From a phage, in the sequence record NC_135728.1: 64,000 nucleotides of DNA; one strand, given 5' to 3'. A model generated the notes under the pieces. That model was given only the letters and a program-made list of their open reading frames with translations, made no database searches and was not told the origin of the DNA. Shown here piece after piece: positions 5,059 through 62,860 of this stretch (its first letter is position 1; each line of letters starts with the position of its first letter). The position numbers and the translations under genes were made by a program.

Positions 5059-5414
5059 TATTCTACCTCCTCTTCTTTTTCTTCGGCATTAGTTTCATGG
5101 CTACTCCACTCGGGAGTTTCCACCTCGATAGTAAACTCACGCACTACACGGTAATTGCCCATGAAGCGCTCTACTTCGTCAAGGCTTATGGAGAGGCCAT
5201 TGGCAACCAGGTCTGCAGCACCCTCTTCTACCAGGTAGTCCAGATTGGCTTCCAGAGCCTCAGGTTCAAACCCTGTCAATGCAATCAGATAACCTTCCCC
5301 TTCATCAGGGAGGACAATACAGCCCAATTGATTTTCTTTAAAAAGGCAGTGACCATCATTATTGATTGGGTGTTCATTGCAGTACATAGCTGCACGATAA
5401 GTAACTTTAGACAT
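5058..5414 (-). CDS. hypothetical protein; start moved to the internal ATG (MSKVTYRA...)
   Basis: Track ORF begins at a TTG (5435); the ATG at 5414 is preceded by AAGGAGA at good spacing. The start lies inside the 29-bp inverted repeat. Confidence 0.5.
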   Translation of the reverse strand: MSKVTYRAAMYCNEHPINNDGHCLFKENQLGCIVLPDEGEGYLIALTGFEPEALEANLDYLVEEGAADLVANGLSISLDEVERFMGNYRVVREFTIEVETPEWSSHETNAEEKEEEVE

Positions 5415-5419
5415 CGGTA
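5391..5419 (-). repeat. 29-bp perfect inverted repeat, copy A (TACCGATGTCTAAAGTTACTTATCGTGCA in minus sense)
   Basis: Exact reverse-complement match to 7253-7281; spans the start codon and first 8 codons of the 5058-5414 gene. Confidence 0.85.
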
Positions 5420-5427
5420 AGGTCTCC

Positions 5428-5706
5428 TTAGGCAATTGTCATTTTACATTCTTGAAATTTTAACACAAGACGGTGATTGTGTCTAGTGTCTAAAAAGATT
5501 TTTTCAACCATCAGGCACACGGTATAACCGTCCATCTTGTTGACAACAAAATCTCCAGGATGAGGGAGGATGTCTCCCGGATTGGGGAAACATAGTCCAC
5601 TCAGAAAGGCATCGTCAGTGGTGGACTTAATAGATTTCCACACACTGTCTGCCTGAACATGTTCACCGACGTAATATACATTACCACACGCCTTCATCAT
5701 AGTCAA
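5428..5706 (-). CDS. hypothetical protein (92 aa)
   Basis: ORF with ATGA stop/start overlap to the upstream gene. Confidence 0.45.
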   Translation of the reverse strand: MTMMKACGNVYYVGEHVQADSVWKSIKSTTDDAFLSGLCFPNPGDILPHPGDFVVNKMDGYTVCLMVEKIFLDTRHNHRLVLKFQECKMTIA

Positions 5707-6602
5707 ACCCTCGCATAAATTAAACTTGTATCAGTATACTTCTTTAATGGGTAAATATCCTGTCCATAGATGCAATCATTAAACACCTCATCTACCCAAA
5801 GGCTACACTTATATCCCATCATTTCTAAAACACCCATCTCTTCTTCGGTAAACTTATCACCGCTCTTGCAAGATGTCAATACCTCATTCTGAACTCTTGC
5901 TACCTCGAAGCGGTTATTGGCAATATCGCTATTGGCGATCAAATACTCACCTAGAGGGTGTGCGGCATTAAAGATGCACAGTGGACGGCTGACGTAATAG
6001 TCTCCGGGTGTATAAAAATTGTTGAGGTCTTTCACTAGAACATTCTTATCAGTCACTTCATTTATAACATCATGCATATCGCACATCTTTATATGTTTGA
6101 GGATTCCATCCCCCATCACAAAATAAAAACTTGCTGAGACACTTTCGGCATAGATCTTACTAGATCCGTTGTAGTTGTATTTTACTCGGATGCTAACGGG
6201 GGTTTTTCCTGTCGCGTTAGCCATCATCCAAAGAAATGGCAGCTCATACTTCTCCTCTGAGGAAACAAAAGGTGAGGTAGCCAGAGATCGAAAACCTCCA
6301 GAGAAGTTGAAAGTTACAGAACCGCTCCGGCGGTATGATACCGCGTATTCTACTTTTATATCGACGTACCCATTGGAATAGGTGTGTCCTTCATTATCTA
6401 AATATGTCCACTTATCAGACCCAGATACCAATCTACGCTCAATAACCTTCATCACTACAGGAATTAGTGGGTTGGTACAAACCGCTTTTGAAGTAGCTTT
6501 ATCATCTAAAGCCTCGTAAATTGCAGAAAGGATGTCCCCAGCTGAAAGATTGGTTGTTATGTCCTGTTTCCACCGCGTACTAAAACTGTTAAGATTTGCC
6601 AT
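5703..6602 (-). CDS. hypothetical protein (299 aa)
   Basis: ORF with AGGAG RBS about 9 nt upstream of the ATG; first gene of the leftward early block. Confidence 0.55.
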   Translation of the reverse strand: MANLNSFSTRWKQDITTNLSAGDILSAIYEALDDKATSKAVCTNPLIPVVMKVIERRLVSGSDKWTYLDNEGHTYSNGYVDIKVEYAVSYRRSGSVTFNFSGGFRSLATSPFVSSEEKYELPFLWMMANATGKTPVSIRVKYNYNGSSKIYAESVSASFYFVMGDGILKHIKMCDMHDVINEVTDKNVLVKDLNNFYTPGDYYVSRPLCIFNAAHPLGEYLIANSDIANNRFEVARVQNEVLTSCKSGDKFTEEEMGVLEMMGYKCSLWVDEVFNDCIYGQDIYPLKKYTDTSLIYARV

Positions 6603-6642
6603 AAGTAAGTGCTCCTATGTTAGTTTTCTTTCGAATGGGTGC

Positions 6643-6671
6643 ACTATATTGTGGAGTTAGAGTAAAGTCAA
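6643..6671 (-). promoter_or_regulatory. sigma70-like promoter (TTGACT-17-TATAGT) for the leftward early block
   Basis: Minus-sense -35/-10 hexamers with 17-bp spacer in the divergent intergenic region. Confidence 0.45.
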
Positions 6672-6684
6672 CACGTTTTTGATG

Positions 6685-6713
6685 TTGACATCTGTTGAGA
6701 CAATTGATACGAT
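6685..6713 (+). promoter_or_regulatory. sigma70-like promoter (TTGACA-17-TACGAT) for the rightward block
   Basis: Plus-strand consensus -35 with 17-bp spacer and partial -10, back to back with the minus promoter. Confidence 0.4.
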
Positions 6714-6744
6714 TTCTTCACTTACAGAGCACGAGAGACGACTC

Positions 6745-7722
6745 ATGAATCTTGAAAAATATTATACACCAGAAGAGTTAGAGCGCTTGCTCAAAAAATA
6801 TAGACGCAAACAGAATAACGCACGGAAACGAGATATAGAGTTCGACCTGTCATGGGAAGAATACCTCCTATTTGGTAAAAAACTTTTAGGAGATGGAGTA
6901 TGCGACTATACCCTTATACCTTTTGACATGCACACAGATGAAAACGGGCTGGGAAATCCTTTCTACCCATCTCTGGAGCGGATAGATGATGAAGGTCCTT
7001 ATGCGGTTGATAACTGTTGTGTGGTGGGATTGAGATGCAACTCTCTAAAGGACTGTCTGGTAGATAAAAAGACTGCAGTCTTGATTAAAGACGAAACTGA
7101 TCGAAAAATTGTCCAGCAGATGATGCTCCACCTGAGCGAAGAGCGTATGGAGAAATTGAAAGGTGATTATACTTTTGAAGATTTCATCTTGCAATATGGA
7201 ACGGAAGAGGATAAACTAGCACTCTTTGACGAAGAAGAGGAGGAAGATATGCTACCGATGTCTAAAGTTACTTATCGTGCACCCAAGAAGCACATTTCCG
7301 ACATTGTAAACGAGCCTATCACAGAAGAGATTGAAGAAATGACGCAACAGGTGCATGAAGAGGAAAAAGAGACTCAGGAGGTCGAAGAGGAGCTTACAGA
7401 AGAGGTTCCTGCACTACCTGATGATGTTGAGATTGCCAAAGCTTACACTTTCTATTGTCAAACGTTCTACGATGTAGGTATGAAAGTTGATCTGTCGTTC
7501 AGCCAATTTAAGAGTTCGTATATTCGCAAATGCTGTGCTTTAACTGGTGAACGTCTTGGAGCTGGACTTAAACCTCTGTTGGTGACCGACTGGAATAAAG
7601 GTTTCACTAAAGGAAACTTTATGGTAGTATCTCCAATTATGGAGAAAGCTATGACAGATCTTATGAAGACCACCCGCATGACAATGACCGAGTTGGCAGG
7701 TATTTTCAAACACGTTAAATAA
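6745..7722 (+). CDS. hypothetical protein with HNH (His-Me finger)-like motifs
   Basis: Track ORF starts at TTG 6679, upstream of the predicted promoter; first ATG after it is 6745 (MNLEKYY). Motif SLERIDDEGPYAVDNCCVVGLRCNSLK plus an acidic linker; a second in-frame start (MSKVTYRA, 7258) sits in repeat copy B, so this may be two genes. Confidence 0.45.
   Translation: MNLEKYYTPEELERLLKKYRRKQNNARKRDIEFDLSWEEYLLFGKKLLGDGVCDYTLIPFDMHTDENGLGNPFYPSLERIDDEGPYAVDNCCVVGLRCNSLKDCLVDKKTAVLIKDETDRKIVQQMMLHLSEERMEKLKGDYTFEDFILQYGTEEDKLALFDEEEEEDMLPMSKVTYRAPKKHISDIVNEPITEEIEEMTQQVHEEEKETQEVEEELTEEVPALPDDVEIAKAYTFYCQTFYDVGMKVDLSFSQFKSSYIRKCCALTGERLGAGLKPLLVTDWNKGFTKGNFMVVSPIMEKAMTDLMKTTRMTMTELAGIFKHVK
7253..7281 (+). 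repeat. 29-bp perfect inverted repeat, copy B
   Basis: TACCGATGTCTAAAGTTACTTATCGTGCA on the plus strand; identical to the reverse complement of 5391-5419. Confidence 0.85.
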
Positions 7723-60069: not shown

Positions 60070-60418
60070 CAGATAGTCTATCTGCTCCCATTCAAATTGT
60101 GTCGTTTATGTTCGGGCAAGGTCGCTAGTCTTGCCCCGCCATTTTCAGGCAGCTGCATGTCTCCATGCAGACCAGACTATATCTTATAAGCGACAACAAC
60201 CGCTTACCCTCCCGTTTCGAATCGCTTGATTCTACGTCTCTCGACTAGTCGTTGAACGTTCATCCTCTCGGATGCTTCGCTGCGGATTATCTAAATTAAC
60301 ACACTGTTACCCTACCTTCGATCTCTCTTCGAAGCCTCTATCATGTTACCATGACAGGTTGGTGGTGTCAATAATAAAGATTTCCCCGCAATTAGGGAGG
60401 TTTTACGAGAGCTGCAAA
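60070..60418 (-). ncRNA. group I self-splicing intron (ORF-less) in the terminase large subunit gene
   Basis: In mRNA sense, conserved core elements in canonical order: P AAUUGCGGGGAAA (60393-60381), Q AAUCCGCAGC (60288-60279), R GUUCAACGACUAGUC (60257-60243), S AAGAUAUAGUCU (60185-60174); in-frame TAA right after the exon-1 GGU. Confidence 0.8.
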
Positions 60419-60847
60419 TTAACCCTCATCGAAGCAAACCATGGTGTACTCAAGCCCCTGATGGTTAAGCTTATCTTGTACATACTCCATGTGGCAGTAT
60501 TTTACAACAGCTCCCTTTTTGCTTCTATCCCACTTACCAGTGTTCGGATCAAACCGTGGAAAAATGAACTTATGATCCTTCTCTCTGAACTTTGGCTTAA
60601 TGTTTTCAGGCAGATCACTATAAATAGCTACTGCTTTAGGCCATAGTCCACCCTCACCTTCCAACTGTGGGGTTGTTCTTCGGAACATAACCACAGAGCT
60701 GTGGGGGTCATCAATAATTTTAAGTGGCATCAACTGCAAGAGGAACGACTTGCCAGACCCTGCGGCACCTCCGATTACCAAAATATCTGCATCGTTTTCT
60801 AGGATCATCTTCTGCTTTTCAGAACACGGTCCGTAAATCTTAGACAT
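60419..60847 (-). CDS. terminase large subunit, exon 1 (ATPase domain)
   Basis: Walker A GGAAGSGKS and Walker B MVCFDEG; ORF ends ...GAU GAG GGU UAA at 60422/60419, with the stop probably intronic. Confidence 0.75.
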   Translation of the reverse strand: MSKIYGPCSEKQKMILENDADILVIGGAAGSGKSFLLQLMPLKIIDDPHSSVVMFRRTTPQLEGEGGLWPKAVAIYSDLPENIKPKFREKDHKFIFPRFDPNTGKWDRSKKGAVVKYCHMEYVQDKLNHQGLEYTMVCFDEG

Positions 60848-61950: not shown

Positions 61951-62027
61951 TGGTCTCCACGGAGTGATTCGAACACTCGACCTCCTGATCCCAAATCAGG
62001 CGCTCTACCAAGCTGAGCTACGCGGAG
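61951..62027 (-). tRNA. tRNA-Pro (anticodon UGG), CCA encoded
   Basis: Manual cloverleaf: acceptor CUCCGCG/CGUGGAG (C1-G72), D-arm GCUC/GAGC, anticodon loop UUUGGGA, T-loop UUCGAAU. Confidence 0.8.
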
Positions 62028-62038
62028 TATTTATAATT

Positions 62039-62113
62039 TGGTGGCCCTGGGTGGAATTGAACCACCATCTGGCGATTATGAGTCGCTTGCTTGAACCTTC
62101 CAGCTACAGGGCC
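62039..62113 (-). tRNA. tRNA-Met (anticodon CAU; elongator or Ile-lysidine type not resolved), CCA encoded
   Basis: Acceptor GGCCCUG/CAGGGCC, anticodon loop CUCAUAA, T-arm GGUGG-UUCAAUU-CCACC. Confidence 0.7.
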
Positions 62114-62114
62114 A

Positions 62115-62190
62115 TGGTGCTGATGGCAGGACTTGAACCTGCAACCTATTGATTACAAATCAATTGCACTGCCAATTGTGCTACATCAGC
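62115..62190 (-). tRNA. tRNA-Thr (anticodon UGU), CCA encoded
   Basis: Acceptor GCUGAUG/CAUCAGC, D-stem GCAC/GUGC, anticodon stem AUUGA/UCAAU, loop UUUGUAA, T-loop UUCAAGU. Confidence 0.8.
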
Positions 62191-62195
62191 AAAAA

Positions 62196-62294
62196 GGTGC
62201 TAGGCGGTGGAATCGAACCACCTATGTATTCAACGACTACCTCGTCTATTTTCAGGATTAAAAATCCTCGCCCTTGCCAAAGGGCTTACCTAGC
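62196..62294 (-). ncRNA. atypical tRNA-like element (~99 nt), possible disrupted tRNA-Lys(UUU) or stable tRNA-like RNA
   Basis: Canonical T-arm GGUGG-UUCGAUU-CCACC and acceptor GCUAGGU/GCCUAGC, but ~30 nt of extra sequence between the anticodon-like hairpin (AGGA-UUUUUAA-UCCU) and the T-arm; no encoded CCA. Confidence 0.4.
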
Positions 62295-62392
62295 TCAGTA
62301 TGTTGACCATGTTGCTAGTCGGCGATGACGACTGTAACATTTGATAATCCGGTTCTGCTTCCGGCTTTCGCTTAATTACAAGGTCAACAATG

Positions 62393-62483
62393 TGGCGGAG
62401 AGTAATGGAATCGAACCATCATCGAGTCATCCTCAATGGGACGGTTTTCAAGACCGCTTGAGCACCATTGCTCCCTACCCTCC
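62393..62483 (-). tRNA. tRNA-Ser (anticodon UGA), type II with long variable arm, CCA encoded
   Basis: Acceptor GGAGGGU/ACUCUCC, anticodon stem GCGGU/ACCGU, loop CUUGAAA, ~20-nt variable arm, T-loop UUCGAUU, discriminator G. Confidence 0.75.
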
Positions 62484-62598
62484 TTTATAAATTATACTGA
62501 TAATGACACTGATTTTCGAGCAGTTAGTGACTAGTATAAACGACGATAAATATCAATGCCATTATCTGTATTATTTACGCATCTAAAAAATATAAATT

Positions 62599-62685
62599 TG
62601 GTGGGGAGTGGTGGAGTCGAACCACCCGAGTCGCAATGACAATAGATTTACAGTCTACACCGCTACCTCTACGGGATAACTCCCC
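62599..62685 (-). tRNA. tRNA-Tyr (anticodon GUA), type II, CCA encoded
   Basis: Acceptor GGGGAGU/ACUCCCC, anticodon stem GUAGA/UCUAU, loop CUGUAAA, ~15-nt variable arm, T-loop UUCGACU. Confidence 0.75.
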
Positions 62686-62689
62686 AATT

Positions 62690-62764
62690 TGGCACCCCGT
62701 ACTGGACTCGAACCAGTGTCAACGGCTTAGAAGGCCGCTGCTTTATCCACTAAGCTAACAGGGC
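62690..62764 (-). tRNA. tRNA-Arg (anticodon UCU), CCA encoded
   Basis: Acceptor GCCCUGU/ACGGGGU (two G-U pairs), D-arm GCUU/AAGC, anticodon stem GCGGC/GCCGU, loop CUUCUAA, T-loop UUCGAGU. Confidence 0.75.
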
Positions 62765-62860
62765 ACTGGGTGGCTTTCTTTTACACCTTAGCCGCCAGAA
62801 AAGGTGGGAGACCATGTTTACAATATTACACTGTTAAGCAAAGTTTGTCAAGAAAATATT

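Follow-up and report, generated by a model that had tools for sequence, protein, structure and literature searches.

Introduction

Why phages carry transfer RNAs (tRNAs) and tRNA-like RNAs is an old question, and recent work shows that some phage tRNAs counter tRNA-cleaving immunity. Phage T5's tRNA-Lys, a 76-nucleotide tRNA that is standard apart from its altered anticodon stem, neutralises PARIS, a system with a nuclease that cleaves the host tRNA-Lys (PMC11464382). The allo-tRNAs and selC*-type tRNAs of soil bacteria display diverse anticodons, UAU and UCA among them, on one long-armed scaffold, and many allo-tRNAs are suspected of non-translational or regulatory roles (Mukai et al., 2017; PMC5389517). 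Here we analyze a 64,000-nucleotide stretch of phage DNA (sequence record NC_135728.1; hereafter the window), in which a gene for a 99-nucleotide tRNA-like RNA, which we call X, lies within a tRNA cluster on the minus strand at 62196–62294 (5′ end at 62294; 3′ end, ...A-C-C, at 62196). Comparison with its homologues indicates that X belongs to a distinct family, whose members occur once per genome, within tRNA clusters, in Vequintavirinae and in a small number of other large virulent phages. Our preferred reading, to which we give a probability of roughly 45%, is that the gene is functional and specifies an L-shaped tRNA-like RNA of non-canonical type, and that the job of its family is more likely to engage tRNA-binding proteins than to decode in the ordinary way.

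The window comes from an rV5-like coliphage (Vequintavirus), and its 1-kb tRNA region is 98–99% identical to those of phiWec193, rV5 and many other phages. Public records treat X in five incompatible ways: it has no annotation in rV5 and appears elsewhere as 'tRNA-OTHER', 'tRNA-???(atcc)', 'tRNA-Stop(tta)/suppressor' or 'tRNA-Lys', with the tRNAscan-SE-annotated BASEL genomes giving 'tRNA-Lys, codon AAA'. In the rV5 genome paper six tRNAs are listed and X goes unmentioned; our literature search found no paper on X, nor any that links Vequintavirinae with a tRNA-like RNA.

Predicted fold of X

ARAGORN called X at exactly 62196–62294 on the minus strand (as are all coordinates in this section), reporting it as 'tRNA-??? 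anticodon (atcc)'; this is the interval in which the original prediction, made from the letters alone, had placed a tRNA-like element of about 99 nucleotides, and it was also recovered by Rfam and by a covariance model of the family (model R1, described below). The minimum-energy fold is a five-helix cloverleaf (−37 kcal/mol, z = −3.8 versus shuffled sequences), and each part that had been listed from sequence inspection, namely an acceptor stem GCUAGGU/GCCUAGC, a D-arm hairpin, a hairpin presenting UUU and a T arm, is found both in the sequence and in this fold. The acceptor stem joins its 5′ strand (GCUAGGU, 62288–62294) to its 3′ strand (GCCUAGC, 62199–62205) through 7 base pairs, the last of which is U·G, and by the fold and the homologue alignments five of the seven pairs are compensated in homologues. 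Next come the linker A8-A9 (62286–62287), of which A8 is invariant in the family alignment where U8 is the norm in standard tRNAs, and the D arm, GCCC-UUUGGCAA-GGGC (62270–62285), in which three of the four core pairs covary; this arm can alternatively be drawn as a 6-base-pair stem with the tetraloop UGGC, resembling that of tRNA-Sec and allo-tRNAs. The anticodon-like arm, G-AGGA-UUUUUAA-UCCU-G (62253–62269), has a stem of only 4 base pairs bracketed by two invariant Gs, which indicates that nucleotide 26 or 27 is missing. Its loop in the window copy is fully canonical, with 7 nucleotides, U33, UUU at 62260–62262, A37 and A38.

The anticodon-like arm and the T arm are separated by exactly 30 nucleotides (62223–62252; AAAAUAGACGAGGUAGUCGUUGAAUACAUA in full), which bears out the earlier estimate of about 30, beyond the length of a type I or type II variable arm. 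This variable region has the form AAAAUA-hairpin-GAAUACAUA, in which the linkers are conserved family-wide and the hairpin, GACGA-GGUAG-UCGUU, has 5 base pairs in the fold (62232–62246). The T arm that follows (GGUGG-UUCGAUU-CCACC, 62206–62222) carries a canonical loop of the T-Psi-C-R-A type. At the 3′ end the gene encodes the discriminator A73 and CC (62196–62198), and a U follows, which leaves the terminal A to be supplied post-transcriptionally; the earlier statement that CCA is not encoded was correct for the full triplet but overlooked that only its last A is missing. The A-CC is followed by UUUUU and then by tRNA-Thr.

Scored with the Rfam tRNA model (RF00005) in a sensitive scan, X reached 31.0 bits against a gathering score of 29, with an alignment that required a 27-nucleotide insertion and deletion of position 27; it was missing from the output of the default gathering scan, and the Rfam scan of X matched no families besides tRNA and tRNA-Sec. 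The original prediction would have been refuted by a covariance model folding the region as a standard tRNA, and in part this happened: the Rfam tRNA model and tRNAscan-SE-based annotation both accept X, but they need the 27-nucleotide insertion and a short anticodon stem to do so. We rejected the four-base anticodon 'atcc' of ARAGORN, whose register implies an AUUUU/AAAAU stem, together with the GenBank label 'tRNA-Stop(tta)', as alternative registers of the U/A-rich loop that are absent from other family members in the alignment. We likewise found no credible protein-coding origin for X, as the only overlapping open reading frames (ORFs) encode 42 and 59 amino acids on the opposite strand; the 'hypothetical protein' calls over X homologues are short and mutually inconsistent.

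Conservation of the fold and spread of the family

Our set comprises over 30 distinct homologues of X, drawn from Vequintavirinae, from uncultured phages and from a single N4-like Salmonella phage. BLAST detected X in ~150 Vequintavirus-type records and a diverged X in a further 45 records from Henunavirus, Seunavirus, Mydovirus and Avunavirus; roughly 190 sequenced phages carry it. Scanning three independent sequence patterns over IMG/VR, and one of them also over metagenomes, added uncultured phages to the family, including a low-GC phage of 149 kb. Model R1, which we built from a MAFFT alignment of 28 distinct sequences, scored family members at 82–118 bits (104.9 for X in the window) and ordinary tRNAs at no more than 28 bits. 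We never saw more than one copy of X per locus, and wherever flanks were available X sat among tRNA genes.

As judged from these alignments, the strongest case against a chance resemblance lies in the comparative pairing data. All 560 of the 560 base-pair cells in the 28-sequence alignment were standard, with compensatory changes in 11 of 20 pairs, and a set of 32 sequences kept 99.7% of 608 cells, with 11 of 19 pairs compensated. Shifted registers paired at only 32–47% over the 28–32 homologues (33–46% when the 28-sequence set was slid by 1–3 columns). Compensatory changes occurred in every stem of X and in a tertiary pair, and each pair of the 7-base-pair acceptor stem and the 5-base-pair T stem was backed by either covariation or invariance. 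The tertiary pair, G19:C56 (the second G of the GG with the T-loop C), is replaced by U19:A56 in nine sequences, and the D-loop sequence UUUGUCAA and the T-loop sequence UUAGAUU occur together in precisely these nine. This switch was probably a single evolutionary event, and the covariation between the D and T loops argues for a true L-shaped fold. Within Vequintavirus, 5 of the 99 sites of X are variable, compared with 20 of 98 in the adjacent spacer, 13 of 91 in tRNA-Ser and 6 of 76 in tRNA-Thr. These patterns indicate that the cloverleaf and the D-loop/T-loop elbow of X are under purifying selection. Comparison with the equivalent locus of related phages, one of the checks suggested at the outset, had in this way returned a conserved family, with 28–32 distinct homologues and 99.7–100% pairing.

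The gene also moves, and does so as a unit. In the Schitoviridae (N4-like) Salmonella phage vB_SenP_UTK0002, X lies within that phage's own tRNA cluster, and when this locus was compared with that of an Erwinia phage the similarity was confined to X (88% identity), with ends that coincide with the ends of X. Transfer of X alone into an unrelated phage implies that, like a tRNA, it needs no linked phage gene as a partner, and on this comparison X is a horizontally mobile gene for a non-canonical tRNA-like RNA. With regard to a host origin, we found no similarity to X in 5,426 complete E. coli genomes and no match to its 3′ motif in GTDB genomes. A looser 5′ motif matched 120 loci in GTDB genomes, which were left unscored by model R1 and neither support nor exclude bacterial members.

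Departures from standard tRNA and variation between lineages

Two positions are fixed in the family alignment as A8 and U14, against U8 and A14 in standard tRNAs. Across the family the D arm can be drawn as a 6-base-pair stem with a UGGC, UGGU or UGUC tetraloop, and the Rfam tRNA-Sec model aligns a D arm of this kind in an X homologue; the two extra U-A pairs of the longer stem never vary and hence lack covariation support. The variable region spans 30–40 nucleotides and consists of GAAAA(A)UA, a hairpin and (N)AAAUAC(AUA). Between these linkers the hairpin of the window lineage is swapped for at least five unrelated hairpins elsewhere in the family. The Av-05 type has A-U changed to G-C in the variable region, and another type has a hairpin with a conserved 12-nucleotide loop, GAAYUAACAGUA, on covarying stems. 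The latter accompanies anticodon loops of two distinct types, a combination suggestive of modular exchange.

The anticodon loop is similarly changeable. The commonest and most widespread form is N-A-U-C-A-A-N, which places UCA after A33 rather than U33, and is carried by Henunavirus, the Schitoviridae phage and a number of uncultured lineages. In Seunavirus and Mydovirus the sequence is CCAUCCAG (with CCCUCAAG and CCAGCCAG as variants), which forms either an 8-nucleotide loop or a fifth pair with a 6-nucleotide loop; Av-05 has UUUAUAA, with a UAU anticodon; and Vequintavirus, the window included, has UUUUUAA, with UUU limited to that genus. The 'anticodons' of orthologues are thus not conserved (UUU, UAU, UCA, and UCC-like or GCC-like loops), and in these alignments it is the anticodon loop, along with the variable-arm hairpin, that differs from lineage to lineage. 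The 3′ end varies as well, with most members encoding U73-CCA and the Vequintavirus/Av-05 branch not doing so. One initial suggestion had been that X is a tRNA-Lys interrupted by an insertion. It fits only superficially: the UUU loop is confined to one genus, and the long variable region with its invariant linkers is ancestral in the family and not a recent insertion.

Relation to described RNA classes

X shares with standard elongator tRNAs (RF00005) the 7-base-pair acceptor stem, the 5-base-pair T stem with a T-Psi-C-type loop and a D-loop GG that pairs with the T loop. Where the standard form has a 5-base-pair anticodon stem after nucleotide 26, X has 4 base pairs, with position 27 deleted by the model. 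The standard loop of 7 nucleotides with U33 and a purine at 37 is kept in the window, whereas most family members have A33 or loops of 6 or 8 nucleotides; the variable region is 30 nucleotides in X and 30–40 in the family, rather than 4–5 (class I) or ~10–24 (class II); and the anticodon conservation expected among orthologues is absent. Class II tRNAs (Ser, Leu and Tyr) have in common with X the acceptor stem, the GG of the D arm, the T arm, the elbow pair, the CCA end and a place in a tRNA operon, and with the window copy a 7-nucleotide loop with U33 and A37. They are set apart from it by its A8, 4-base-pair anticodon stem, missing nucleotide 26 or 27 and a variable region that exceeds their usual maximum of about 20–24 nucleotides.

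The nearest described class is that of the allo-tRNAs and selC*-type tRNAs, which share with X a long arm, the possibility of a Sec-like D arm, the diversity of anticodons on a single scaffold and, in most family members, U73. Their defining acceptor/T helix is 8/4 or 9/3, however, and the 7 + 5 pairs of X led us to reject membership in this class. Unlike allo-tRNAs, X also has a shorter anticodon stem (4–5 base pairs rather than a longer one), a far larger variable region with conserved single-stranded linkers, A33 in most members and enterobacterial lytic phages rather than soil bacteria as carriers; and the G73 or U73 of allo-tRNAs is A73 in the window copy. The tRNA-Sec class (RF01852) resembles the family in its long extra arm and in a 6-base-pair D stem with a UGGU or UGGC tetraloop, which the D arm of the family can form, and resembles the commonest X type in having UCA followed by AAA. 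It differs in its 13-base-pair (8/5) helix and G73, as X has a 12-base-pair (7/5) helix, U73 or A73, A33 and, in the window, UUU. We rejected identity with tRNA-Sec because of the 7/5 helix, the absence of G73 and RF01852 scores of 29–42 bits (37.6–41.9 for the best members) against a gathering score of 47.

The tRNA-Lys of T5 also has a UUU loop and an anticodon stem unlike that of the host tRNA-Lys, and it too resides in the tRNA cluster of a virulent coliphage; it is a standard tRNA that has been shown to decode and to resist the PARIS nuclease AriB, whereas X is aberrant in structure and known here from its sequence. The species 1 and 2 RNAs of T4 (rnaC and rnaD) are, like X, small non-tRNA genes inside a phage tRNA cluster, and rnaC contains a T-arm-like hairpin by sequence inspection. 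They are longer than X (119–139 nucleotides) and are not complete cloverleaves, and we know of no function for them. Homology to these RNAs was rejected, as model R1 had no match to them at E ≤ 0.01, and in T4 it matched only tRNA-Thr and tRNA-Leu, weakly. Among the three explanations first offered for the locus, the one under which X would be a stable tRNA-like RNA of the kind found beside phage tRNA clusters fits best, with the amendment that X is not homologous to the T4 examples. The best reading of these comparisons is that X represents a new family of non-canonical tRNA mimics outside any named family.

Decoding or mimicry

If the UCA-type loops decoded efficiently, the phages that carry them would be predicted to avoid UGA stops. 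We did not see such avoidance: TGA ends 39 of 99 ORFs (≥100 amino acids) in 49 kb of an Erwinia phage and 12 of 71 ORFs in the complete genome of UTK0002, both of the UCA type. In UTK0002, the only complete genome in this comparison, reading on in frame beyond a TGA added at most 39 codons, and there was no long read-through ORF. The ancestral form of X is thus unlikely to have decoded, and for the same reasons we rejected an opal-suppressor or recoding role for the UCA-type relatives. Furthermore, phages with the UCC type also carry a canonical tRNA-Gly(UCC), and those with the UCA type a canonical tRNA-Lys(UUU). The TGA stops, these duplicate canonical tRNAs, A33 and the loops of 6 or 8 nucleotides together make ordinary decoding an unlikely ancestral function, and an L-shaped, CCA-ended tRNA mimic would be the more economical description of the family.

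Under our preferred reading, X would be co-transcribed with the neighboring tRNAs from a promoter upstream of tRNA-Arg, its 5′ end would be cut by RNase P and its 3′ trailer trimmed, and the host CCA-adding enzyme would complete its 3′ end. It would then act as a tRNA mimic by relying on the tRNA-handling proteins of the host instead of on a dedicated partner from the phage, and in the phage of the window it would imitate tRNA-Lys through the loop UUUUUAA and the discriminator A73. In E. coli, tRNA-Lys is the classic target of tRNA-cutting anti-phage nucleases, and the most plausible role for X would be as a decoy for such host nucleases, or as a stand-in that is insensitive to them.

A more specific version of this idea, which we consider speculative and on the whole doubtful, is that the family consists of RNA anti-defence factors, in which a nuclease-proof scaffold carries an exchangeable anticodon arm and variable hairpin as bait that titrates or blocks tRNA-cleaving immune nucleases; in rV5-group coliphages the targets would be tRNA-Lys nucleases such as PrrC, RloC and the PARIS nuclease AriB. 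The combination of tRNA-like processing, a non-host structure and fast-changing anticodon and extra arms fits either a bait or a resistant stand-in. [quoted passage not shown] Septu cuts tRNA-Tyr in its variable loop, and phages respond with more tRNA-Tyr (PMC13096335). In rV5 an RnlA-like RNA ligase lies beside a phosphoesterase and an ATPase 4–5 kb from the tRNA cluster (rV5 65706–67714; 5207–7215 in our extract L212), and an Erwinia relative encodes a phosphoesterase, an RNA ligase, a polynucleotide kinase-phosphatase and a tRNA nucleotidyltransferase (extract L211, 7924–9970 and 35767–37032). T4 classically answers the tRNA-Lys anticodon nuclease PrrC by repair, through Rnl1 and Pnkp. The closeness of RNA-repair genes to the tRNA cluster suggests that tRNA damage exerts selection on this group of phages.

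Several observations weigh against assigning X to mimicry. A mimic or decoy role is an inference from sequence, and loop type tracks phage phylogeny over host (the E. coli phage AV124 has a Klebsiella-type loop), which weakens the case for host-specific mimicry. Retrieval by sequence pattern (three independent patterns, with BLAST in addition) accounts for part of the apparent invariance of the linkers, as an ascertainment effect, and the most divergent members, which were found via their 5′ half only, retain just AAAUAC of the linkers. In the Vequintavirus lineage alone, X also satisfies the identity set of E. coli LysRS, which is U34-U35-U36 with A73, and its canonical 7-nucleotide loop with U33 and A37 would suit a working decoder equally well; this phage has no other tRNA-Lys, and tRNAscan-SE-based annotation names X a tRNA-Lys. 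On sequence alone, a tRNA-Lys look-alike and an odd but working tRNA-Lys cannot be told apart in this phage, where X may also decode AAA and AAG, or may only engage tRNA-binding proteins such as anti-phage nucleases. The leading alternative, which we rate as possible though distinctly less probable than the mimic, is accordingly that X in the window is a structurally odd tRNA-Lys(UUU), charged by LysRS, reading AAA and AAG, and insensitive to nucleases that recognise the host tRNA-Lys. Besides the UUUUUAA loop (with A38) and A73, this alternative draws on the canonical elbow and 7/5 acceptor/T helix, on a cluster whose other members (UCU, UGA, UGU and UGG) likewise read A-ending codons, on the call of tRNA-Lys/AAA in BASEL genomes, on the UAU (AUA) loop of the sister lineage Av-05, another typical phage-supplied anticodon, and on the precedent of the T5 tRNA-Lys that counters PARIS. 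It has to contend with orthologues whose loops are unfit for normal decoding (A33, or 6 or 8 nucleotides) and whose UCA forms coexist with abundant TGA stops, such that decoding by X would be a lineage-specific gain; with a 4-base-pair anticodon stem flanked by G·G, a missing position 26 or 27, and A8; and with a full CCA that is not encoded. In addition, LysRS is a class II synthetase, and enzymes of this class approach a tRNA from its variable-region side, where the 30-nucleotide arm of X may clash.

The remaining explanations are much weaker than either the mimic or the tRNA-Lys. Recoding in the style of allo-tRNAs, in which members would be charged independently of the anticodon (by SerRS via the long arm, for example, or by CysRS via U73) and would insert that residue at UGA, GGA, AUA or AAA, might be expected from the long variable arm, the Sec- or allo-like D arm, U73 in most members, the suppressor label in some GenBank records and the diverse 'anticodons' on one scaffold, a pattern reported for allo-tRNAs (PMC5389517). 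We judge it improbable, however, given that UCA-type phages commonly use TGA as a stop and no long read-through ORF occurs in UTK0002, that A33 replaces U33, that the variable hairpin sits on single-stranded linkers of 5–9 nucleotides, unlike in tRNA-Ser, and that the window copy has A73 rather than G73 or U73. X might instead have no role in trans and serve as tRNA-shaped punctuation, a processing or stability signal for RNase P and 3′ exonucleases that separates or protects neighboring RNAs. Its distance of 2–6 nucleotides from neighboring tRNAs, the adjacent spacers that fold better than shuffled sequence and a conserved non-coding stretch of ~180 nucleotides 3′ of X in other genera could all be accommodated in this way; but real tRNAs on both sides already offer such signals, X was transferred to an unrelated phage without its neighbors, and punctuation would not need a conserved anticodon-arm geometry, linkers and type-specific loops, which makes it about as improbable as recoding. 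As for a decaying tRNA pseudogene, which the original prediction had raised, or a chance tRNA-like fold, gene finders do disagree on X or skip it (no call in rV5; '???', OTHER, Lys or TERM elsewhere), and its Rfam score is barely above threshold. Nonetheless, every stem and the tertiary pair have been kept by compensatory changes, pairing stands at 99.7–100% over 28–32 distinct sequences from several genera and two families, and sites in X vary as little as those in neighboring tRNAs (5 of 99, versus 20 of 98 in the spacer). We consider a pseudogene or chance origin refuted by these comparative data, with a negligible residual probability.

If X is a mimic, it would represent a natural RNA effector built on a tRNA scaffold, and with it a novel type of phage–host interaction module; if it is a decoder, it would rank among the most structurally deviant functional bacterial-type tRNAs and be of interest for the engineering of tRNAs. 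In both cases X is at present treated inconsistently when tRNAs are counted or codon usage is analyzed in these phages, several of which are candidates for therapy or biocontrol.

The tRNA cluster and its surroundings

The cluster that contains X spans 61951–62764 on the minus strand (ARAGORN and Rfam, as for its individual genes), and its order by ARAGORN is Arg(UCU)-Tyr-Ser(UGA)-X-Thr(UGU)-Met/Ile2(CAU)-Pro(UGG). The genes, all on the minus strand, are tRNA-Arg (62690–62764), tRNA-Tyr (62599–62685), tRNA-Ser(UGA) (62393–62483), tRNA-Thr (62115–62190), the Met/Ile2(CAU) tRNA (62039–62113) and tRNA-Pro (61951–62027). A consensus scan placed a sigma-70-like promoter, TTGACA-17-TAATAT, upstream of tRNA-Arg at 62823–62851 (−), a site that the rV5 record labels 'P(tRNA)', and this promoter likely drives the whole cluster from Arg through Tyr, Ser, X, Thr and Met to Pro.

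The Rfam gathering scan misses tRNA-Ser(UGA), for which the best hit of the sensitive scan is a sub-threshold match to the tRNA-Sec model (41 bits); standard models capture long-arm phage tRNAs poorly. The identity of the CAU tRNA is disputed, as rV5 and ARAGORN give tRNA-Met and the BASEL genome AlexBoehm gives a tRNA-Ile recognising ATA; it may be Met or a lysidine-modified Ile2. The two long spacers of the cluster, 62295–62392 (−) and 62484–62598 (−), fold better than shuffled sequences (z = −2.6 and −3.9, respectively). The former is weakly conserved in the genus (20 of 98 sites variable) and the latter is a long AU-rich hairpin; both may be further small RNAs or processing elements.

In relatives, the surroundings of X hold other irregular genes. 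Henunavirus and Mydovirus loci have a ~180-nucleotide non-coding stretch between X and tRNA-Leu (1605–1786 in our locus L001; 1537–1718 in L003), which may be another structured RNA, as it is conserved by eye between Erwinia and Klebsiella phages. Irregular tRNA-like genes adjoin X at L002 1419–1494, L003 1351–1425 and 1814–1892, L038 1910–1991, and L005 928–997 and 2598–2672. Among these are ARAGORN 'tRNA-???' calls with 2- or 4-base anticodons and a 'tRNA-Ser(cga)' without a long arm, and others are unannotated, with 30–35 bits to the Rfam tRNA or tRNA-Sec models. The tRNA clusters that bear X seem rich in non-standard tRNAs.

Outside the cluster, the window contains a group I intron at 60153–60457 (−) (Rfam RF00028, 79 bits), which probably interrupts the terminase gene, given that the coding sequence of the rV5 terminase large subunit, which ends here, is joined from three pieces. 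Finally, ~18 records labeled 'Campylobacter phage' (GenBank MG0656xx) are 98–99% identical to rV5-like coliphages in this region, and their host labels look doubtful.

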